From Paracoccus suum (lineage in GTDB: Bacteria; Pseudomonadota; Alphaproteobacteria; Rhodobacterales; Rhodobacteraceae): 32,000 bases of DNA. The notes beneath the pieces are model-generated. The model saw only the letters and a list, made by a program, of their open reading frames with translations, ran no database searches and was not told the origin of the DNA. The stretch's first letter is position 1. Every line of letters starts with the position of its first letter. A program made the translations under genes and the position numbers. Where the stretch lies: contig NZ_CP030918.1 in the NCBI RefSeq assembly GCF_003324675.1, positions 570,001 through 602,000 of the forward strand, written 5' to 3'. Shown here one piece after another: positions 2,415-23,311 of this stretch.

Positions 2415-3470
2415 ATGCTGCCCACCGAGCGCCTTCACCAGATCACCCGCCGCTTCGAATATCTCGAGGCGCGGCTGAATGCCGGTCCGGCGCCCGACGA
2501 GATCGCAGACGTCAGCCGCGAATACGCCGAGCTGAAACCGGTCGTGCAGCTGATTGCCGACTGGAACGAAGCCGAGGCCGGCATTGCCGAGGCCCAGGCC
2601 ATGCTGGCAGATGCCGAGATGCGCGACCTGGCCGCGGACGAACTGGCCCGCCTGCGCGCCGTCCAGCCAGAACTGGAGCAGGCCCTGCGCCTCGCCCTGC
2701 TGCCGAAAGACGCGGCCGACGCCCGCCCGGCGATCTTGGAAATCCGGCCCGGCACCGGCGGCGAGGAGGCTGCCCTGTTCGCCGCCGACCTGATGCGCAT
2801 GTATCAGCGCCACGCTGAGGCGCAGGGTTGGCGCGTCGAAGTGCTGGAGCTCGCCGCGACCGAACTCGGCGGCGTGCGCGAGGCCGTCATGCGGATCGTT
2901 GGCGAAGGGGTCTTTGCGCGGCTGAAATACGAATCCGGCGTGCACCGCGTCCAGCGCGTGCCGGAAACCGAATCCGGCGGGCGGATCCACACCTCGGCCG
3001 CGACGGTGGCGGTCCTGCCCGAGGCCGAAGCCGTCGAGATCGACATCCCCGCGACCGACATCCGCATCGACACGATGCGCGCCAGCGGGGCCGGCGGCCA
3101 GCACGTCAACACCACCGATTCGGCCGTCCGCATCACCCACCTGCCGACCGGGATCGTGGTCACCTCGTCCGAAAAATCGCAGCACCAGAACCGTGCCAAC
3201 GCCATGGCCGTTTTGCGGGCGCGGCTGTTCGACTTGGAACGATCGCGCGTCGATGCAGCCCGCGCCGCAGACCGCCGCACCCAGGTCGGCAGCGGCGATC
3301 GCAGCGAGCGCATCCGCACCTACAACTTTCCCCAAGGGCGACTGACCGACCACCGCATCAACCTGACGCTTTACGCGCTCGAAAAGGTGATGGCGGGCGA
3401 TCTGTCCGAGGTGATCGACGCGCTGACCGCGCATGACCAGGCTGCGCGCCTCGCCGCGTCCGAGGGCTAG
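2415..3470 (+). CDS. prfA: peptide chain release factor 1
   Basis: The 351-aa product carries the GGQ motif ([25 protein letters not shown]) and the RF1-type PxT tripeptide ([13 protein letters not shown]), not the RF2 SPF. No frameshift site is present. Confidence 0.95.
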
Positions 3471-3560
3471 CACCGCCTCGCCGGGCGCGATCCGGCGCCA
3501 GGCACCAAGGGGGTTGCGCTGCCCGCCCCGATGGGCACACCATGACCCTGCATTTGACGG

Positions 3561-3587
3561 ACGCCCCCGGCCCAAGGCCGGGGGCGT
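3561..3587 (+). terminator. GC-rich hairpin downstream of prfA (possible intrinsic terminator without a clear U-tract)
   Basis: acgcccccggc / ccaag / gccgggggcgt forms a perfect 11-bp stem with a 5-nt loop. It is followed by tcgcg rather than a T-run. Confidence 0.4.
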
Positions 3588-3647
3588 TCGCGCAAGCTGC
3601 GTGACTGTGGCCCCCGCCGTGAACGAGGCGGTTCTGAGGACCGATGA

Positions 3648-4118
3648 ATGGAACGGATACCGATGACGCGGGCGGGTTTCGCCCAGGCCGAGGAAGAGCT
3701 GCGTCAGCTGAAATCGGTCGAGCGCCCCGCGGTGATCAAGGCGATCGCCGAGGCGCGCGAGCATGGCGATCTCAGCGAGAATGCCGAATACCACTCTGCC
3801 CGCGAAAAGCAGAGCTTCCTTGAGGGTCGCATCAAGGAGCTTGAGGCGATCCTCAGCCGCGCGCAGGTGATCGACGTCGCCGGCATGTCGGGCGCAATCA
3901 AGTTCGGCGCCACCGTCGATCTGGTCGACGAGGATACGGACGAGCGCAAGACCTTCCAGATCGTCGGCGAAGCCGAGGCCGATCTGGAACGCGGGCTGCT
4001 GAACATGCGCTCTCCGCTGGCGCGGGCGCTGATCGGCAAGGACGAAGGCGACAGCGTCGAGGTGGTCACCCCCGGCGGTCAGCGCAGCTATGAAATTCTC
4101 GCGGTGCGCTACGCATGA
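3648..4118 (+). CDS. greA: transcription elongation (cleavage) factor GreA
   Basis: [55 protein letters not shown]... is the classic GreA N-terminal coiled coil with the DLSENAEY motif. Length is 156 aa. Confidence 0.95.
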
Positions 4119-11685: not shown

Positions 11686-13125
11686 CTAGCCCACGACCTC
11701 GCGCGCCATTTCCAGGTCGGCCAGCAACTCCGCCCGCGCCTTTTCCTGCGCTGCCGCGTCGGGGATCCGCAGGATATAGCTGGGGTGCCAGCTCAGCAGA
11801 ACCGGACCGTCGGGCGTGTCCTCGATCTTGCCGCGGCGGCGCGTGATGCCCTCCTTGCGGCCGGTCAGCGCCAGCGCCGCGGTCCCGCCAAGACCCATGG
11901 TCAGTTTCGGGCGCACCAGCCGCAACTCCTCGGCCAGCCACCAGCGGCAGGCCTGGACCTCACCGGCATTCGGGGTCTGGTGCAGGCGACGCTTGCCGCG
12001 GGGGGTAAACTTGAAATGCTTGACCGCATTGGTCAGCCAGGTGGCGGGACGCTGCACGCCGGCCTTCGCCATCGCCTCGTCCAGCACCTGCCCGGCAGGG
12101 CCGACGAAGGGCCGGCCGGCCAGATCCTCGTGATCGCCGGGCTGCTCGCCGACGATCATCAGCGCCGCATTTGGCGCGCCCTCGCCGAACACAGCCTGGG
12201 TTGCGTGCTGGTAAAGATCGCAGCGGGTGCAAAGGCCGCAGGCCGCGCGGGCATCGTCCAGCGAGCGGATCTCGGCCGGCGCGGCCGGCATTCCCTTGCG
12301 ATAGCGGGCGCTGATGGCACTGGCGCGGCCCGGCGCCTCGGTGGCCTCCGCGGCGCGCATGGCGGCAACCCGGCCCTCTGCCGCCGCGAGCATTGCCGGG
12401 ATCTGGTTGGTTTCCGGCAGGTTTTTCCAGTATTTCTGCGGCATCTCGGACCTCATGGCATCAAGCTTGATCCGTGCCGGGTTGAAGATATTGGCGAAGT
12501 AGGTCGCCCACAACGCTTCGTGGGCGTCGTCCGGCAGGTCCGGCCGATCCGCGCCGGCGGCCATCCGCAGGGTCCCGTCCTCGAAAATCGCCGAGGCGTC
12601 GGGCGTGTGGATCGCCCAGTCCATGTCTGCAAAGCGGCGCGCAAAGAACGGCGCGTTCAGGCCGACGATGCGGTGATCCGGCTCGAACCAGGCGGCAAAG
12701 CGGCGGCGCGGCTGGTCGGTCGGCAATTCGCGGAACCGCACGAAGGCGCGCATCTTGTGCATGTCGCGCCGCACCGCCTTGGCGAGGACCTGCACCCGCC
12801 GCACCAACGGATCGGCAGGATCGGCGAGCAGCCCGCGCTCGGCCTGCAGCCGCAGCAGCAGGGTGTAGAGGAGGCCCGGCGCCTCCGGGTCACGATGCGC
12901 CAGCACCAGTTCGGCCAGGGACAGAAAGTCCTTGGGCACGGACAAGCCGCCGCCACCCGGTTGGGCGGCCCGCGGTGCCGGGGCCGAGGCGGCGAACAGA
13001 TCGCCCTCGCCCTCGCCGCCGTGCCACGCGACGTCGGCCGCCGGCACCCCGGCGGCGGCGAGGCCACGCGCCGCCTCGCGCCACGCCGCCATAAGTCGCT
13101 CGGCTGGCAGAGCGACGCGATACAT
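11686..13125 (-). CDS. fusion protein with an N-terminal DUF4130 (TIGR03915-type 'probable DNA metabolism protein') domain and a C-terminal family-4/UdgX-like uracil-DNA glycosylase domain
   Basis: The C-terminal half carries the Fe-S Cys cluster CGLCTRC and the family-4 motif A (VFGEGAPNAALMIVGEQPGDHEDLAGRPFVGPAGQVL). It also carries the loop TNAVKHFKFTPRGKRRLHQTP (KRRLH encoded at 11980-11994) and motif B (SWHPSYILR). The N-terminal ~270 aa (AFVRFRE...FAAWFEPDHRIV...YFANIFNPARIKLDAMRSEMPQKYWKNLPE) matches my memory of DUF4130. The start overlaps the radical SAM gene's stop (TGATG at 13123-13127). Confidence 0.85.
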   Translation of the reverse strand: MYRVALPAERLMAAWREAARGLAAAGVPAADVAWHGGEGEGDLFAASAPAPRAAQPGGGGLSVPKDFLSLAELVLAHRDPEAPGLLYTLLLRLQAERGLLADPADPLVRRVQVLAKAVRRDMHKMRAFVRFRELPTDQPRRRFAAWFEPDHRIVGLNAPFFARRFADMDWAIHTPDASAIFEDGTLRMAAGADRPDLPDDAHEALWATYFANIFNPARIKLDAMRSEMPQKYWKNLPETNQIPAMLAAAEGRVAAMRAAEATEAPGRASAISARYRKGMPAAPAEIRSLDDARAACGLCTRCDLYQHATQAVFGEGAPNAALMIVGEQPGDHEDLAGRPFVGPAGQVLDEAMAKAGVQRPATWLTNAVKHFKFTPRGKRRLHQTPNAGEVQACRWWLAEELRLVRPKLTMGLGGTAALALTGRKEGITRRRGKIEDTPDGPVLLSWHPSYILRIPDAAAQEKARAELLADLEMAREVVG

Positions 13126-14351
13126 CAGATCAGGGCCAGTTGCTCGGGCGGCGGCGCGAAGCGGGCGCGCAGGTCGGCGGCGTCGGTCATCGCGCCGGGC
13201 GTCCAGCCGGGCAGGCTGACGAAGGCCCGCGCGCGTTTCATAAGCGCGCCGATCCGCACCAGATCGTCCCAGCCGAGGCTGCGGTTGCGCCGCGCGGCGA
13301 TGATCCGCTCGACCGTCTTGGTGCCGAACCCCGGCACACGCAGCAGCATCTCGCGCGGGGCGAGGTTCACATCCAGCGGAAAGCTGCCGCGGTTCGCCAG
13401 CGCCCAGGCGAGCTTGGGATCGACCCCAAGGTCCAGCATCCCATCCCCGCCCGAGGCGATCTCCTCTGCCTCGAACCCGTAGAACCGCATCAGCCAGTCG
13501 GCCTGGTACAGCCGATGCTCGCGCATCAGCGGCGGCTTGATCAGGGGCAACACGGCCGAACTGTCTGGGATCGGCGAGAAAGCGGAATAATAGACCCGCT
13601 TCAAGCCATAGCCGGTGTAAAGCCGGGCCGAGGCGTCCAGTATCCGCGCGTCCGAGGCCCCGTCCGCGCCCACGATCATCTGCGTGGATTGGCCCGCGGG
13701 GGCAAAGCGCGCGGGGCGCCTGCCCTTGTGGCTGCGCTCGCGACTGGCCTCGCGCGCGACCTTGACCCTCGCCATCGCGCCCCGGATCGTCTCCGGCCGC
13801 TTTTCGGGGGCCAACTCGCGGATCGACGTGTCCTGCGGCAACTCGATGTTGATCGACAGGCGGTCGGCGAACAGCCCCGCCTCGTCAATCAACTCGGGCG
13901 AGGCGTCGGGGATAGTCTTGAGGTGGATGTAGCCCTTGAAGCCGTGATCAATGCGGAGCGTCTTTGCGATACGCACCATGTCAGCCATGGTCTGGTCCGG
14001 ACTGCGGATGATGCCGGACGACAGGAACAACCCCTCGATATAGTTGCGGCGATAGAATTCCAGCGTCAGGGAGACGACCTCCTCGACGCTGAACCGCGCC
14101 CGCTCGACCTGGCTGGACACGCGATTGACGCAATACGCGCAGTCGAAGATGCAGAAGTTGGTCATCAGGATTTTCAGCAGCGAGACGCAGCGCCCGTCCG
14201 GTGTGTAGGCGTGGCAAATACCGCTGCCCTCGGTGCTGCCTAGGCCGCCGGCGCGCGAATCACGCCGCGTGGTACCGCTGCTGGCGCAGGAGGCGTCGTA
14301 TTTCGCGGCATCCGACAGGATGGCAAGCTTGCGGGCGAGGTCGGGCTTCAT
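13125..14351 (-). CDS. putative DNA modification/repair radical SAM protein (TIGR03916 type) with a C-terminal helix-hairpin-helix-like tail
   Basis: The radical SAM cluster motif CIFDCAYC is encoded at 14130-14153. The N-terminus MKPDLARKLAILSDAAKYDASC is typical of this family. The C-terminal ...LLRVPGFGTKTVERIIAARR is an HhH-type DNA-binding motif. Confidence 0.85.
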   Translation of the reverse strand: MKPDLARKLAILSDAAKYDASCASSGTTRRDSRAGGLGSTEGSGICHAYTPDGRCVSLLKILMTNFCIFDCAYCVNRVSSQVERARFSVEEVVSLTLEFYRRNYIEGLFLSSGIIRSPDQTMADMVRIAKTLRIDHGFKGYIHLKTIPDASPELIDEAGLFADRLSINIELPQDTSIRELAPEKRPETIRGAMARVKVAREASRERSHKGRRPARFAPAGQSTQMIVGADGASDARILDASARLYTGYGLKRVYYSAFSPIPDSSAVLPLIKPPLMREHRLYQADWLMRFYGFEAEEIASGGDGMLDLGVDPKLAWALANRGSFPLDVNLAPREMLLRVPGFGTKTVERIIAARRNRSLGWDDLVRIGALMKRARAFVSLPGWTPGAMTDAADLRARFAPPPEQLALI

Positions 14352-16734: not shown

Positions 16735-17334
16735 CTAGGCACGCCCCGCAGCCGCCGATAGGACCGAGGGATCGACCCCCATCTGCCGCAGGGCCATGGC
16801 CCATTTGGCATCGTCATCGGCACCGAACAGGATGGCATCGCTGCGCTCGGCAGTCAGCCAGCCATTGGCCAGCATCTCGCCCTCCAGCTGGCCCGGACCC
16901 CAGCCCGCATAGCCCAGCGCCAGCACCGCCTGGGACGGACCCGAGCCGCGTGCGAGCTCCTCGAGGATGTCGCGGGTGGTGGTCATGGCAAGGCCGGGTG
17001 CGATGGCCAGTTGCCCCTCCGGCGGCTCGGGCGCGTCCTCGTCCCGGCTGGCCGCGGCTTCGGTGTTGTGCAGCACGAAGCCCCGCCCGGGCTCGACCGG
17101 GCCGCCAAAGCGCACGGCGATCTGCTGCACGCTGGGGCCGCGGTCTATGTCTAGCTGGCCGAGCAACTCGTCGAACTGCAACTCGCGCAGCGGGCGGTTC
17201 ACGACCAGGCCCATCGCGCCGTCGTCCGAATGTGCGCAGATCAGCACGACCGAGCGGTCGAACCGTGGATCGGCCATGCCCGGCATCGCAATCAGCAGCT
17301 TTCCAGTAAGGTTGTCGGTCTGGTCCATGGCCAC
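16735..17334 (-). CDS. yqgE: YqgE/AlgH family (UPF0301) putative transcriptional regulator
   Basis: LTGKLLIAMPGMADPRFDRSVVLICAHSDDGAMGLVVNRPL... and GYAGWGPGQLEGEM are hallmark YqgE/AlgH segments. Confidence 0.88.
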   Translation of the reverse strand: MAMDQTDNLTGKLLIAMPGMADPRFDRSVVLICAHSDDGAMGLVVNRPLRELQFDELLGQLDIDRGPSVQQIAVRFGGPVEPGRGFVLHNTEAAASRDEDAPEPPEGQLAIAPGLAMTTTRDILEELARGSGPSQAVLALGYAGWGPGQLEGEMLANGWLTAERSDAILFGADDDAKWAMALRQMGVDPSVLSAAAGRA

Positions 17335-17461
17335 GCTTCCCTCTCGCGAACCTCAAGAGTCGGGGTCGCGCGTCGGGATCACAACCCCGCTGGCCCCCGC
17401 TCGGGTCCGGGTGGCGCAGATGTGATTTTTCCCAAGGGGGACGGTCGCCTAAGCCCGTGCC

Positions 17462-18295
17462 ATGCAAATCCGCCTGTTTCATGCCGCTGCCGCCGTTCTG
17501 ACAGTGCTGGCCATTGCCGGCGGGGCGGCGGCCGCGCCGGGCACCGGACAGACCGGCGCGCCTACTGTCCCCGGCCTTGCCAGCGCGGCGCTGCTGCCCG
17601 GCTGGATCACGGCAGCGGGCACGCGCATGATCGCGCTGGACCTGCAGTTGCAGCCGGGGTGGAAGACCTACTGGCGCGCGCCTGGCGATGCCGGCATCCC
17701 GCCGGAGTTCGACTGGGCCGGCTCGACCAACCAAGGGGCGGTCGTGTTCCACTGGCCCGCGCCCGAAGTGATCGACAGCAACGGCACCCGGACGCTCGGC
17801 TTTCACGACCGGTTGGTCCTGCCGATCGAGGTCGCGCCGGCCGCCCCCGGAGCGCCCCCGGACCTGAAGGTCGCCATCGATTTCGGCCTCTGCCGCGAGA
17901 TCTGCGTGCCCGCGCATGTCACCTTGACAGCACCCCCGCCTGGCGCCGCGCCCGATCCGGTGATCGAGGCCGCACTGGAGGCAGCGCCGCTGCGACTGTC
18001 CGGCCAGGCCGCCTGCCATGTCTCCCCGATCGCGGACGGGTTGCGGATCGACGCCGCCGTCAGGCAGGACCTCGGCCCGCAGCCCAAGGCGGCGCTGGAG
18101 CTGATGACCCCGCCCGGTGCCCCGCCGGTTTGGGTGTCCGAGGCCGAGGTCAGCGTCGACGGCCCGACCATCACCGCCGCCGCCGATTTCGTGCCGCCCT
18201 CGGGCGAACCCTTCGACCTCGACCCCTCGCAAGTGCGGCTGACCCTGATCGACGCAGACGGCCGTGCGGTCGAAGTGGATGGCTGCGCGGGCTAG
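17462..18295 (+). CDS. periplasmic DsbD N-terminal-domain (thiol:disulfide interchange) family protein
   Basis: It has a signal peptide (MQIRLFHAAAAVLTVLAIAGGAAAA). GWKTYWRAPGDAGIPPEFDW and the Cys pair in FGLCREICVP are typical of DsbD-alpha/ScsB-like domains. Confidence 0.7.
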   Translation: MQIRLFHAAAAVLTVLAIAGGAAAAPGTGQTGAPTVPGLASAALLPGWITAAGTRMIALDLQLQPGWKTYWRAPGDAGIPPEFDWAGSTNQGAVVFHWPAPEVIDSNGTRTLGFHDRLVLPIEVAPAAPGAPPDLKVAIDFGLCREICVPAHVTLTAPPPGAAPDPVIEAALEAAPLRLSGQAACHVSPIADGLRIDAAVRQDLGPQPKAALELMTPPGAPPVWVSEAEVSVDGPTITAAADFVPPSGEPFDLDPSQVRLTLIDADGRAVEVDGCAG

Positions 18296-18305
18296 CGCCG
18301 GCCCT

Positions 18306-19130
18306 CTACAGCCCCAGCCGGTCCGCAACCGCCAGCAGATCGGCCCATGCCTCGCGCTTGGCAACCGGATTGCGCAACAGATATGCCGGATGTGTCATCG
18401 GCAGCGCCGGGCGGCCAAAGCATTCCGTCCATGCCCCGCGCAGCCGCAGGATGCCCTCACGGCCCAACCCCGCTTGGCAGGGCGTGTTGCCCATCAGCAG
18501 CAGCACCTCGGGGTTTGCCAGCTCGACATGGCGTGCGAGGAAAGGCACCGAGGCCGCGATCTCGGCCGCATCGGGGCGGCGGTTTCCGGGCGGACGCCAG
18601 GTCAGCACGTTGGTGACATAGAATGCGCGGGCCGGGTCCTCGGCATCGCGGCTCAGGCCGATGGCGGCCAGCAACCGGTCCAGCAACTGGCCGGCGCGGC
18701 CGACGAAGGGTTTGCCCTGCGCGTCCTCGCCCTCGCCCGGGGCCTCGCCGATCACCATCACCCGCGCGGCGGGATTTCCGTCGGCAAAGCAGAAGTTCCG
18801 CGCCCCCCGCTTCAGCGAGATGCCGTCGAAGGCCTGCTGTGCGGCGGCAAGGGCGGCCAGATCGGTGGCCGCCGCCGCAAGCGCCTGCGCCGCCGCAACG
18901 ACATCGGCTTCGCCTTCGCCTTCGCCCGCCATCATCAGGGCCGGGGCCGCTGGCTGCGCCTGCGGCGCGGCGGTCGGCGCAACCGGCGCGGGGACTGCCG
19001 CCTCGGCCAGCCGGTCAACGGGTGCGTCCAGCATCGCCTCGTCCCCGCCCATCTCGCACTGCCATTCCAGCAGCGCGAGCGCGAGCGCGCCATCGATCTC
19101 GTGGCCATGGAATCGGGGCAATGACATCAT
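18306..19130 (-). CDS. family-4 uracil-DNA glycosylase with an alphaproteobacterial N-terminal extension
   Basis: Motif A is [30 protein letters not shown] and motif B is [11 protein letters not shown]. The N-terminal ~110 aa is an Ala/Pro-rich extension. Confidence 0.85.
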
Positions 19131-19239: not shown

Positions 19240-20208
19240 ATGACGTTCCGCGCGCGCCATCTGCTGGGGATCGAGCCGCTCTCCCCGCCGGAAATCGTCA
19301 GCCTTCTGGATCTGGCCGAAACCTACGTCGCCTTCAACCGGCGCACGGTGAAGCATTCCGACGCGCTGGAGGGGCTCACTCAGATCAACATGTTCTTCGA
19401 ACCCTCGACCCGCACCCAGTCCAGCTTCGAGCTGGCGGGCAAGCGGCTGGGCGCGGATGTGATGAACATGGCCATGGCCCAGTCCAGCCTGACCAAGGGC
19501 GAGACACTGATCGACACGGCGCTGACGCTGAACGCCATGCGCCCGGACCTGCTGGTGGTCCGCCACCAGGATTCGGGGGCGGTGAACCTGCTCGCCTCCA
19601 AGGTCGATTGCGCCGTCATCAATGCCGGCGATGGCCGCCATGAACACCCGACCCAGGCGCTGCTGGACGCGCTGACTATCCGCCGCGCCAAGGGCCGCCT
19701 GCAGCGCCTGACCATCGCCATCTGTGGCGATATTGCCCATAGCCGCGTTGCACGCTCGAACCTGATCCTGCTCGGCAAGATGGAGAACCGGCTGCGCCTC
19801 GTCGGTCCCGCCACCCTGATGCCCGCCGGCGCGGCCGACCTCGGCTGCGAGGTCTATGAGGATATGCGCGAAGGCCTCGCAGGCGCCGACGTCGTGATGA
19901 TGCTGCGCCTGCAAAAGGAACGCATGGACGGCGGCTTCATCCCCTCGGCCCGCGAATATTTCCACCGCTGGGGACTGGATGCCGAAAAGCTGGCCTGCGC
20001 CAAGCCCGACGCCATCGTCATGCACCCGGGCCCGATGAACCGGGGGGTCGAGATTGACGGCACCATCGCCGACGACATCAACCGCAGCGTCATCCAGGAC
20101 CAGGTCGAGATGGGAGTGGCGGTCAGGATGGCCGCGATGGACCTGCTGGCGCGCAACCTGCGTGCCGAGCGCGGCGCGCGGGCGGCGGAGGAGAGCATCG
20201 ATGTGTAG
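19240..20208 (+). CDS. pyrB: aspartate carbamoyltransferase catalytic chain
   Basis: Internal start [15 protein letters not shown]... (ATG at 19240) of track ORF 18661..20208. Motifs [23 protein letters not shown] and HPGPMNRG are present. Confidence 0.93.
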
Positions 20209-20271
20209 CTCTGGCCCTTTGCCCCGCACGCACCTGCGCGCGATCTGCCGCGCCCCGTTCAGGAGTCCGCG

Positions 20272-21531
20272 ATGAACCTCCACTTCATCAACGCCCGCCT
20301 GATCGACCCCGAGGCGCAGACCGACGCCATCGGCAGCCTGGCGGTCGCCGATGGCGTGATCGTTGCGGACGCGCCCGAGGGGGCGGCCACCATCGATTGC
20401 GGCGGCAAGTGCCTCGCCCCGGGGCTGATCGACTGGGGGGTCAAGATCGGCGAGCCGGGCGAGCGGCACAAGGAATCCCTGCGCAGCGCGGCCGCGGCCG
20501 CGGTCGCGGGCGGCGTCACCACGATCATCGCCCGGCCTGACACCCTGCCCCCCATCGACAGCCCCGAGGCGCTGGAGTTTGCCACCCGGCGCGCGGCCGA
20601 AGTGTCCGCGCGCGTGCGCCACCAGGCGGCACTGACCCGCGGACGCGAGGGCGCCGAGATGGTCGAGATGGCATTCCTGTCCGATGCCGGGGCCATCGCC
20701 TTCACCGATGGCGTACGCGTCACCACGAACACCCGGCTGCTGTCGCGTGCCATGACCTATGCCCGCGGCATCGGCGCTCTGATCGTCGGCCATCCTCAGG
20801 ATGCGGACCTGTCGCGCGGCGCGTCCGCGACCAGCGGCAAGTTCGCCTCGCTCTACGGGCTCGCAGCCGTCTCGACCATGGCCGAGCGCATGGGCCTCGA
20901 GCGGGACCTGGCGCTGGTAGAGTTGACCGGCGCGCGCTGGCACGCCGACCAGATCACCGCCGCCTGCGCCCTGCCCGCGATCGAGCGCGCGCGCACCGCC
21001 GGCCTCGACGTCAGCTTTGGCACCTCGATCCACCACCTGACACTGAACGAGTTCGACGTCGGCGATTATCGCACCTTCTTCCGCTTCACCCCGCCCCTGC
21101 GGTCCGAGGATGATCGCGTCGCAATGATCGAGGCCGTGGCCGATGGCCGGATCGACGTCATCGGCAGCTTTCACACCCCGCAGGACGAGGAATCCAAGCG
21201 CCTGCCCTTTGCCGCCGCCGCGCCCGGCGCCGTCGGGTTGGAGACGCTGCTGCCGGCGGCGATGCGGCTCTACCATCAGGGCGGCCTCAGCCTGCCGCAA
21301 CTCTGGCGGGCGATGTCGCTGAACCCGGCCCGCCGGCTGGGACTGCCGGGCGGGCGCCTGACCGCCGGCGCGCCGGCGGATCTGGTCCTGTTCGATCCCG
21401 ACGCGCCATTCATCCTCGACCGTTTCACGCTGCGCTCGAAATCCAAGAACACGCCCTTTGACGGAGCGCGGATGGAGGGGCGGGTGCTCGGCACATGGGT
21501 CGGCGGTGCGCAGGTCTATGCCCATGAGTGA
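20272..21531 (+). CDS. pyrC: dihydroorotase-like protein with degenerate active site (PyrC'-type, probable non-catalytic ATCase partner)
   Basis: It is collinear with class I dihydroorotases (APGLID....GEPG..HKE, AFTDG, SIHHL, KSKNTPF). However, the HxH metal motif reads DWGVK (20431-20445), the CHVS His position reads ADQI, and TDHAPH reads SFHTPQ. Confidence 0.8.
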   Translation: MNLHFINARLIDPEAQTDAIGSLAVADGVIVADAPEGAATIDCGGKCLAPGLIDWGVKIGEPGERHKESLRSAAAAAVAGGVTTIIARPDTLPPIDSPEALEFATRRAAEVSARVRHQAALTRGREGAEMVEMAFLSDAGAIAFTDGVRVTTNTRLLSRAMTYARGIGALIVGHPQDADLSRGASATSGKFASLYGLAAVSTMAERMGLERDLALVELTGARWHADQITAACALPAIERARTAGLDVSFGTSIHHLTLNEFDVGDYRTFFRFTPPLRSEDDRVAMIEAVADGRIDVIGSFHTPQDEESKRLPFAAAAPGAVGLETLLPAAMRLYHQGGLSLPQLWRAMSLNPARRLGLPGGRLTAGAPADLVLFDPDAPFILDRFTLRSKSKNTPFDGARMEGRVLGTWVGGAQVYAHE

Positions 21532-22120
21532 GGTGCTGGTCTGGGCGCTCGCGGCCATATTTGGCTACCTGCTCGGCTCGGTGCCGTTCGGGATCGTCAT
21601 TACGCGGGCCCTCGGCCTCGGTGATCTGCGTACCATCGGCTCGGGCAATATCGGCGCGACCAATGTGCTGCGTACCGGCCACAAGGGTGCCGCCTTGGCG
21701 ACGTTGCTGCTGGACAGCGGCAAGGGCGCCATTGCCGTGCTGATCGCCCGCTATTTCGGTGGCGAGGTGGCGGGGATCGTCGCCGGCACCGCCGCCTTCG
21801 TCGGCCACCTGTTTCCGGTCTGGCTGGGCTTCCGGGGCGGCAAGGGGGTCGCGACCTTCCTTGGCACCCTGCTGGCGCTGCATCTGCCGCTGGGGCTGGC
21901 CGCGTGCGCCGCCTGGGCGCTGACGGCGGCGGTCAGCCGCATCAGCAGCCTGTCGGCACTGGCGGCAGCCGGCCTCTCACCGGTGATTGCGCTGATGATG
22001 GCCCGCCCGGGCATCGCACTCGCCTGCCTTGGCATGGCGGTCCTGATCGCAGTCCGGCACCGCACCAATATCGCCCGCCTCCGCGCCGGAACCGAACCGA
22101 GGATCGGCCGCAAGGGCTGA
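21524..22120 (+). CDS. plsY: glycerol-3-phosphate acyltransferase PlsY (acyl-phosphate dependent)
   Basis: Internal start MSEVLVWALAAIFGYLLGSVPFGIVITR...GSGNIGATNVLRTG...FPVWLGFRGGKGVAT of track ORF 21458..22120. The start overlaps the pyrC' end by 8 nt. Confidence 0.92.
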   Translation: MSEVLVWALAAIFGYLLGSVPFGIVITRALGLGDLRTIGSGNIGATNVLRTGHKGAALATLLLDSGKGAIAVLIARYFGGEVAGIVAGTAAFVGHLFPVWLGFRGGKGVATFLGTLLALHLPLGLAACAAWALTAAVSRISSLSALAAAGLSPVIALMMARPGIALACLGMAVLIAVRHRTNIARLRAGTEPRIGRKG

Positions 22121-22178: not shown

Positions 22179-22916
22179 ATGAAAGCCGTGCTCACCATGA
22201 CCATGATCGCTGCCGCCGGCTTGCCGGCCGCCACCGCCGCCGGCGAGGCCGTGACCTATTCCGCCGAAGGGCGCGAATTCGAGGGTTATTTGGCCAAGGC
22301 CGACAATCCCAAGGGTGCCGTCGTGCTCATCCACGACTGGGACGGGTTGAACGAATACGAGAAGTCGCGCGCCGACCAGTTGGCCGCACTGGGCTACAGC
22401 ACCTTTGCCGTCGACATCTATGGCAAGGGCGTTCGCCCGACCACGATGGAAGGCAACAAGGCCGAGACCGCGAAGCTGTATGGCGACCGGCCAATGATGG
22501 TGAAGCTGCTTGAGGCCAGCGTGGCCGAGGCGCAGAAGCAGGGGCTGAAGTCGGCCGTCGTGATCGGCTACTGCTTTGGCGGCGCGGCGGCGCTGGAGCT
22601 TGCAGCCGCCCAGCCCGAGGGCGTGGTGGGCTACGGCACCTTCCATGCCGGTCTGGGGCAGCTAAAGGACACCGACTTTGCCGCCGCCAAGGCACCGGTG
22701 CGGCTATGGCATGGCGGCGCTGACGCCTCGGCCCCGCTGACCGCTCTGGCGGTGGTGGGCGATAAGCTGAATGCGGCGGGAACGCCGTGGCGCGCCACGA
22801 TCTATGGCGGCGCGCGCCACACCTTCACCGTCCCCGGCACCAAGGATTACGTCGAGGCTGATGACAAGGACAGCTGGGCGCAGTTCCAGGCCTTCCTTGC
22901 CGAGGTCTTCAAATGA
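22179..22916 (+). CDS. dienelactone hydrolase family protein (secreted)
   Basis: It has a signal peptide ([22 protein letters not shown]). [11 protein letters not shown]...AVDIYGKG...VIGYCFGG (nucleophile elbow with Cys) and a C-terminal HTF are typical of the DLH family. Confidence 0.8.
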
Positions 22917-23311
22917 GGATCACGCGGGCGGGCAGCCAGCCCTCGAAACCCGGGCCCAAGGAATGGTTCACCGGCAGTGTCCGGCTGGATGCGCCGATTG
23001 CCACCGAGGCGCCGGCGCGTCTTGCTGGCGCAAGCGTGACGTTCGAGCCCGGGGCGCGAACCAACTGGCACACCCATCCGCTGGGACAGACGCTGGTCAT
23101 CACCGCTGGCCTCGGCCGCGCGGCACGCGAGGGCGGCCCGGTCGAGGAATTACGGCCCGGCGACATCGTCTGGTTCGCCCCGGGCGAGCGGCACTGGCAC
23201 GGCGCAGCCCCGGACACGGCGATGACCCACCTCGCCTTGCAGGAAGCCGGCGAGGATGGCAGCGCTGTGACTTGGCTGGAGCCGGTCAGCGCCGCAGATT
23301 ATCGGGCTTGA
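22913..23311 (+). CDS. cupin domain protein
   Basis: [23 protein letters not shown]...[16 protein letters not shown] carries cupin motifs 1 and 2. Its ATG overlaps the upstream stop (ATGA). Confidence 0.8.

Follow-up and report, generated by a model that had tools for sequence, protein, structure and literature searches.

A probable non-catalytic dihydroorotase homologue encoded next to pyrB in Paracoccus suum

The locus described here lies in a 32,000-nucleotide stretch of the Paracoccus suum chromosome (RefSeq contig NZ_CP030918.1, positions 570,001 to 602,000), hereafter the window, which has a G+C content of about 70% and whose own numbering is used throughout. Three consecutive genes form its core: pyrB, encoding the catalytic chain of aspartate carbamoyltransferase (ATCase); pyrC' (also pyrX), encoding a homologue of class I dihydroorotases (DHOases); and plsY, encoding a glycerol-3-phosphate acyltransferase. 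The pyrC' gene directly follows an intact pyrB in the same orientation, with a spacer of 63 nt between them. In this work, alignment, profile searches, structure modelling, and genomic comparison were combined to examine PyrC', which is most likely a pseudo-dihydroorotase of the kind termed PyrC', PyrX, or pDHO. Such a protein would serve as an architectural subunit of ATCase, while ring closure would be carried out by a separate class II dihydroorotase, PyrC.

Active-site losses and retained fold of PyrC'

The PyrC' protein matches class I dihydroorotases from end to end, and the collinearity claimed in the initial annotation of this DNA was thereby borne out (phmmer against the Aquifex aeolicus enzyme, PDB entry 3d6n: E-value 1.4e-70, residues 9-416). 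The A. aeolicus DHOase serves as the reference for residue numbering, its residues being given in three-letter code and those of PyrC' in one-letter code. A single register was obtained from three independent alignments: the phmmer alignment with 3d6n, which has high posterior probability, a MAFFT alignment with 133 representatives, and a five-sequence L-INS-i alignment. In the A. aeolicus enzyme, the catalytic zinc is held by His61, His63, and Asp153, the last being a bridging ligand, and Asp305 lies nearby; this alpha-site metal is required for catalysis, whereas the beta-site mutant H180A/H232A is still active (PMC3880350).

All alpha-site ligands are replaced in PyrC' (His61 by G56, His63 by K58, and Asp153 by G147), and so are the catalytic Asp305 (F300) and the substrate-binding residues Arg65 (G60), Asn95 (D90), and His309 (Q304). 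At the beta site, His232 is replaced by Q227 and His180 is kept as H174, the sole surviving metal ligand; the adjoining Cys181 has become P175, and His306 is retained as H301. Since His61, His63, Asp153, and Asp305 are all replaced and the beta site is dispensable, the argument for inactivity is built on the functionally decisive positions, and PyrC' is predicted to lack DHOase activity. The initial annotation had recognized DWGVK in place of the D-x-H-x-H motif, ADQI at the later metal-histidine position, and SFHTPQ with loss of the catalytic Asp. All three readings agree with the present alignments, Q227 standing at the His232 position within HADQI. Its list of losses was correct as far as it went, and needs to be extended by Asp153 (the Asp of the FTDG segment corresponds to Asp152), Arg65, and Asn95. 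Its wider statement that the metal residues had been lost applies to most of the ligands but not to the beta-site H174, which is still present. No intact set of ligands occurs elsewhere in the chain, judging from the structure-based match to 3d6n.

PyrC' scores above the cut-off of the general model TIGR00857 (pyrC_multi; 300.8 vs 279.05), but its score with the best NCBIfam equivalog, NF006558, is 495.9 vs a cut-off of 645, and the remaining equivalogs are likewise below their cut-offs. An AlphaFold2 model computed from an 80-sequence alignment reached a mean predicted local distance difference test (pLDDT) score of 97.0 and a predicted template modelling (pTM) score of 0.95; an input of only 26 close Paracoccus sequences gave a pLDDT of 53.8 and was discarded in favour of the larger alignment. 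The best Foldseek match of the model in PDB is 3d6n_A, which shows the A. aeolicus DHOase in its ATCase-bound form, with a template modelling (TM) score of 0.95 and a root mean square deviation of 1.8 Å over 422 columns, followed by the DHOases of B. anthracis, S. aureus, and T. thermophilus. In the model, the class I DHOase fold is fully retained.

Conservation of the degenerate family and the class II enzyme

Among 26 Paracoccus orthologues of PyrC' (80-88% identity), the mean column identity is 86%, and the residues D54, W55, G56, V57, K58, G147, H174, P175, Q227, F300, H301, and Q304 are invariant; the replacements are therefore not due to chance. The ratio of nonsynonymous to synonymous substitution rates (dN/dS), calculated by the Nei-Gojobori method, is 0.146 for pyrC' between P. 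suum and a metagenomic relative with 88% identity and 0.179 between P. suum and P. contaminans, compared with 0.127 for pyrB, 0.155 for gshA, and 0.14-0.36 for plsY. The pyrC' gene is under purifying selection like pyrB and is not a pseudogene.

The loss of the active site extends far beyond the genus. In a HMMER search covering 1.84 billion representative proteins, the best 150 clusters (50% identity) were analyzed. The ligand set is missing from all of the approximately 46 clusters with scores over about 272 bits (38-53% identity), and proteins with the intact H-H-R-N-D-D-H-C-H-D-H-H combination are confined to scores of 272 bits or less, at about 37-40% identity. Because the nearest 46 or so clusters are all degenerate, the loss is old and family-wide. 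The individual positions have fared very differently: among 92 degenerate proteins, His61 is kept in 3, Asp153 in 4, His63 in 18, and Asp305 in 43, compared with 89 for Asp59 and all 92 for His306, and the residues that replace the ligands vary widely between degenerate lineages. A structural role is presumed for Asp59 and His306. In a rough midpoint-rooted neighbour-joining tree, the proteins of P. suum, Ruegeria, and S. meliloti fall into one all-degenerate clade. This clade is very large, with His306 and Asp59 kept in nearly all members and the zinc ligands free to vary, a pattern that could guide structural work on how such subunits hold ATCase trimers.

A PyrC' without activity would call for another dihydroorotase in the cell. 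No second, intact dihydroorotase gene is present within the 32-kb window. A tblastn search of a plasmid collection with the PyrC proteins of E. coli and S. meliloti gave matches in five Paracoccus records, belonging to P. denitrificans, P. pantotrophus, P. versutus (two records), and P. ferrooxidans. In P. ferrooxidans (CP038202.1), the annotated pyrC is followed by pyrE, with dnaB, gap, and purB adjoining. With the P. ferrooxidans PyrC as query, a protein search found full-length class II orthologues of 347 residues in more than 20 named Paracoccus species, in which the class II ligands H14, H16, K99, H136, H174, and D246 (class II numbering) are all invariant. A genome scan with the motif CGCAGCFTAPN detected at least 120 loci in Rhodobacterales and related bacteria, all with a class II pyrC. 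The pseudo-enzyme and the class II PyrC occur together in at least seven named Paracoccus species: P. ferrooxidans, P. versutus, P. niistensis, P. sediminis, P. alkenifer, P. subflavus, and P. yibinensis. It is on this distribution that we infer a class II pyrC in P. suum itself.

The replicon location of these genes was also recorded. In P. denitrificans, P. versutus, P. pantotrophus, and P. ferrooxidans, the class II pyrC and pyrE genes occur as a pair on records of 1.4-2.2 Mb filed as plasmids, and the pseudo-DHOase gene of P. ferrooxidans is found on a 2.5-Mb contig, so that the two genes named "dihydroorotase" are carried by separate replicons.

The PyrB partner and the organization of the locus

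The P. suum PyrB protein is a clear ATCase catalytic chain (395 bits with NCBIfam NF002032 vs a cut-off of 263), and its catalytic motifs are intact in an alignment with relatives. Its best matches in PDB are the ATCases of B. subtilis and A. aeolicus rather than those of the E. coli type, and no pyrI-like regulatory gene stands beside pyrB among the open reading frames (ORFs) of the window. Like the P. suum protein, the other alphaproteobacterial PyrB proteins examined are without the N-terminal extension that is present in Acinetobacter. The carbamoyl-phosphate loop of P. suum PyrB (residues 56-60) has the sequence STRTQ where STRTR is usual; this variant is common to the PyrB proteins of P. 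contaminans, Ruegeria, and S. meliloti and absent from those of Acinetobacter and B. subtilis. It was considered as a sign of a defective ATCase and rejected, since it is found in all alphaproteobacterial PyrB proteins examined and none of the other catalytic motifs is impaired.

The coordinates of the genes and of the relevant residues are given in Table 1. The pyrC' and plsY genes overlap by 8 nt (21524-21531, ATGAGTGA), as had been claimed initially: the plsY ATG starts at 21524, ahead of the end of the pyrC' TGA at 21529-21531. Another possible plsY ATG at 21518 would lengthen the overlap to 14 nt. The overlap and the kept gene order make a single transcription unit of pyrC' and plsY plausible. 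Promoter and terminator scans around the operon detected no promoter-like or terminator-like site, and an Rfam scan of the window detected no RNA family.

Table 1. Genes of the pyrB-pyrC'-plsY region and diagnostic positions of PyrC' (window coordinates)
Feature	Positions	Strand	Remarks
pyrB	19240-20208	plus	Aspartate carbamoyltransferase catalytic chain, 322 aa; NCBIfam NF002032
pyrB-pyrC' spacer	20209-20271	plus	63 nt; Shine-Dalgarno-like CAGGAG 7 nt ahead of ATG
pyrC' (pyrX)	20272-21531	plus	Class I dihydroorotase-like, predicted non-catalytic, 419 aa
D54-W55-G56-V57-K58	20431-20445	plus	Former D-x-H-x-H motif (GAC TGG GGG GTC AAG)
G60	20449-20451	plus	Arg65 position
D90	20539-20541	plus	Substrate-binding Asn95 position
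G147	20710-20712	plus	Zinc-bridging Asp153 position; preceding D146 corresponds to Asp152
H174	20791-20793	plus	Beta-site His180; next residue P175 for Cys181
Q227	20950-20952	plus	Beta-site His232 position; within HADQI, 20941-20955
SFHTPQ	21166-21183	plus	F300 for Asp305, H301 corresponds to His306, Q304 for His309
plsY	21524-22120	plus	Glycerol-3-phosphate acyltransferase; TIGR00023, 162.8 bits vs cut-off 137
AlgH-like (DUF179) gene	16735-17334	minus	
DsbD_N-domain gene	17462-18295	plus	
Family-4 uracil-DNA glycosylase gene	18306-19130	minus	
Dienelactone-hydrolase-like gene	22179-22916		Downstream of plsY
Cupin gene	22913-23311		132 aa; downstream of plsY
gshA		minus	Downstream of cupin gene

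The order pyrB, DHOase-like gene, plsY recurs in S. meliloti, Ruegeria sp. TM1040, P. contaminans, and the closest metagenomic relative. In S. meliloti, pyrB overlaps the DHOase-like gene by 4 nt, and plsY (35 nt downstream), dprA, and topA come next. In Ruegeria sp. TM1040, one extra ORF separates pyrB from the DHOase-like gene and gshA lies downstream as in P. suum, and in P. contaminans the overlap of the DHOase-like gene with plsY is also 8 nt. The junction of pyrB and the DHOase-like gene is occupied by additional ORFs in several relatives: a 219-residue ORF without a Pfam family in P. contaminans (locus positions 3345-4004), a 177-residue hypothetical protein in Ruegeria sp. TM1040 (2361-2894), and two ORFs without a Pfam family in the closest metagenomic relative (404-1610). 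A literature search on Paracoccus suum returned nothing relevant.

Several features of the flanking genes were noted as well. The block of AlgH-like, DsbD_N-domain, and family-4 uracil-DNA glycosylase (UDG) genes 5' of pyrB is inverted between P. suum (16735-19130; DUF179 minus, DsbD_N plus, UDG minus, pyrB plus) and P. contaminans (locus positions 1-2237; UDG plus, DsbD_N minus, DUF179 plus, pyrB plus). Ahead of its 170-residue UDG domain, the family-4 UDG of P. suum carries an Ala-, Pro-, and Glu-rich N-terminal extension some 100 residues long, and only residues 105-270 match the hidden Markov model. A second uracil-DNA-glycosylase-like gene within the window encodes a DUF4130 and UDG-superfamily protein (11686-13125) and directly follows a radical-SAM gene (13125-14351), both on the minus strand, with stop and start overlapping. 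On the other side, the cupin gene overlaps the dienelactone-hydrolase-like gene by 4 nt and scores 191.5 with the NCBIfam model for (R)-mandelonitrile lyase (cut-off 140); this gene pair is also found 3' of plsY in the closest metagenomic relative.

Interpretation, rival explanations, and comparison with known systems

The proposal of the initial annotation that PyrC' is a non-catalytic protein of the PyrC'/PyrX type is supported by the loss of the ligands and the catalytic Asp, the kept fold, purifying selection, the adjacency to pyrB, and the phenotype of S. meliloti, in which disruption of smc01361 leads to pyrimidine auxotrophy despite an essential PyrC encoded elsewhere (diCenzo et al. 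2018, PMC5929573). The product of smc01361 was proposed to be an inactive dihydroorotase, PyrX, that is needed for PyrB (PMC5929573). By the mechanism that we favour, PyrC' keeps the complete class I DHOase fold and would be unable to bind the catalytic zinc or to deprotonate the hydrolytic water. Class A ATCase of Aquifex consists of two ATCase trimers held by three DHOase dimers. In the same way, PyrC' dimers would bridge two PyrB trimers to form a 6+6 dodecamer of about 480 kDa and would thereby stabilize or enable aspartate carbamoyltransferase, ring closure being left to the class II PyrC encoded elsewhere, beside pyrE. Both the association of PyrC' with PyrB and the dependence of ATCase on PyrC' are thus predicted from the comparison with these systems.

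Several observations weigh against this interpretation. The P. suum PyrB lacks the N-terminal extension found in the Acinetobacter and Pseudomonas proteins, and among solved structures it is closest to the B. subtilis trimer, which is self-sufficient; P. suum PyrB may therefore function without a partner. The pyrB-linked protein of Acinetobacter baumannii, used as a stand-in for the Pseudomonas type, is only 27.7% identical to PyrC' and falls into a separate all-degenerate clade of the rough tree, with intact DHOases between the two. This topology hints at more than one origin of inactivation; it is taken as a hint only, since fast-evolving pseudo-enzymes are prone to tree artefacts. The term Pseudomonas-like would thus describe the probable working mode of PyrC' but not its lineage, and the transfer of the mechanism from Pseudomonas spans a long evolutionary distance. 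In alphaproteobacteria, the evidence for a PyrB-PyrC' complex is indirect and genetic, from S. meliloti, where the insertion could be polar on plsY. In addition, P. suum, which forms a long branch, is found neither among the best 120 protein matches listed for the class II PyrC, all of which are from Paracoccus, nor among the first 120 loci of the CGCAGCFTAPN genome scan.

Some of these points would also fit with a conserved pseudo-enzyme whose job is other than assembling or activating ATCase, such as a regulatory or ligand-binding subunit with a remodelled pocket, a scaffold passing carbamoyl-aspartate to the class II PyrC, or a protein in a role tied to plsY. The residues W55, K58, Q227, F300, and Q304, together with the kept D54, H174, and H301, are invariant in Paracoccus and mostly common to Ruegeria, and this invariance of the pocket is not predicted by a simple relaxation of the site; the adjacency of pyrC' and plsY is kept across alphaproteobacteria, with the genes overlapping in Paracoccus, and PyrB is similar to the self-sufficient trimeric ATCases. 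However, the pocket residues differ between Rhodobacterales and S. meliloti, and they are not kept across the degenerate clade, so that no family-wide new site emerges. The constant feature is linkage to pyrB, and the auxotrophy of the S. meliloti mutant is specific to pyrimidines. A function apart from ATCase is quite unlikely on this evidence. Far less probable is a catalytically active DHOase with unconventional chemistry or a different metal site, even though PyrC' exceeds the broad TIGR00857 cut-off, bears the name dihydroorotase in databases, and has a precedent in P. aeruginosa PyrC2, which was reported to be active despite a changed ligand set (PMC2770081). PyrC2 has lost a single His, with Gln in its place (PMC11672702), whereas PyrC' has lost the alpha-site ligands, the catalytic Asp, and three substrate binders; it also remains far under the equivalog cut-offs, and Paracoccus genomes encode an intact class II PyrC.

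The missing active-site residues, and the wide differences of their replacements between lineages, might also be expected of a decaying relic that was made redundant by the class II pyrC and is drifting to loss. The reading frame is nevertheless open over its full length, its dN/dS values (0.146-0.179) are like those of the neighbouring housekeeping genes, the mean column identity across the genus is high, the model is confident and native-like, and the clade is large and old. Residue invariance, dN/dS, and the modelled fold effectively refute such decay, which is left with a negligible probability. On the other side of the assembly role stands a more far-reaching combination, unlikely as a whole, in which the alphaproteobacterial loss was independent of that in Pseudomonas and Acinetobacter, the re-fixed pocket binds a regulatory ligand, and plsY ties cytidine triphosphate (CTP) to phospholipid. 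Were it true, ATCase-bound DHOases would repeatedly be reduced to pure scaffolds where a class II PyrC is available. As to its parts, the Rhodobacterales constellation D54, W55, K58, H174, Q227, F300, H301, and Q304 could bind a regulatory ligand, and the translationally coupled plsY could link pyrimidine (CTP) supply to phospholipid synthesis.

With PyrC' read as an architectural ATCase subunit, the main value of the analysis is correct annotation. The P. suum protein and hundreds of its orthologues in Paracoccus and Rhodobacterales are named "dihydroorotase" in public databases, and because of this name EC 3.5.2.3 would be given to the wrong gene in metabolic reconstructions, the real enzyme probably being the class II PyrC beside pyrE. 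Knowledge of pseudo-DHOase subunits in ATCase goes back to 1995, and a member from alphaproteobacteria was put forward in 2018; the P. suum protein adds one more and is another data point for pseudo-enzymes kept as architectural subunits. It leaves the understanding of the pyrimidine pathway unchanged and is of modest evolutionary interest.

Four known systems are suitable for comparison. The class A1 DHOase of Aquifex aeolicus (3d6n) ranks first among both the sequence matches (about 34% identity) and the structural matches of PyrC', with the same two-domain architecture and no notable insertions; it differs in being a real enzyme, with the His61/His63/Asp153 zinc site and Asp305, of which P. 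suum PyrC' has none. The fungal URA2 and Chaetomium pseudo-DHOases are described as zinc-ligand-free modules kept as architectural elements beside ATCase (PMC7053772). They are domains of a multifunctional CAD-like polypeptide, whereas PyrC' is a separate subunit, and no fungal pseudo-DHOase is among the top Foldseek matches of the PyrC' model.

The PyrC' of Pseudomonas was reportedly recognized as a class A2 ATCase subunit by Schurr and colleagues in 1995. In P. putida and P. aeruginosa, PyrC' (pDHO), a homologue of DHOases with a mass of about 45 kDa, is encoded right after pyrB and has no zinc ligands; these genomes depend on a class II PyrC. The P. aeruginosa pDHO is inactive, yet the assembly of active ATCase requires it (Patel et al. 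2020, PMC7053772), and the Pseudomonas protein is the presumed working model for that of P. suum. Judged by its A. baumannii stand-in, it differs from the P. suum protein in the low identity and the separate clade, and also in the N-terminal extension of its PyrB.

The closest described counterpart is S. meliloti PyrX, which is 48% identical to P. suum PyrC' over the full length and belongs to the same all-degenerate clade. Of the two genes, that of S. meliloti is the one with a recorded phenotype. The two proteins differ in the residues replacing the five lost ones (His61, His63, Asp153, His232, and Asp305), which are R/F/G/E/S in S. meliloti and G/K/G/Q/F in P. suum, and PyrX has also lost His180. 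The gene junctions differ as well: the 4-nt overlap of pyrB with pyrX and the distance of 35 nt to plsY contrast with the 63-nt spacer and the overlapping plsY of P. suum. The two systems share the order pyrB, DHOase-like gene, plsY and the absence of His61, His63, Asp153, His232, and Asp305, and the S. meliloti genome contains a separate class II pyrC-pyrE.

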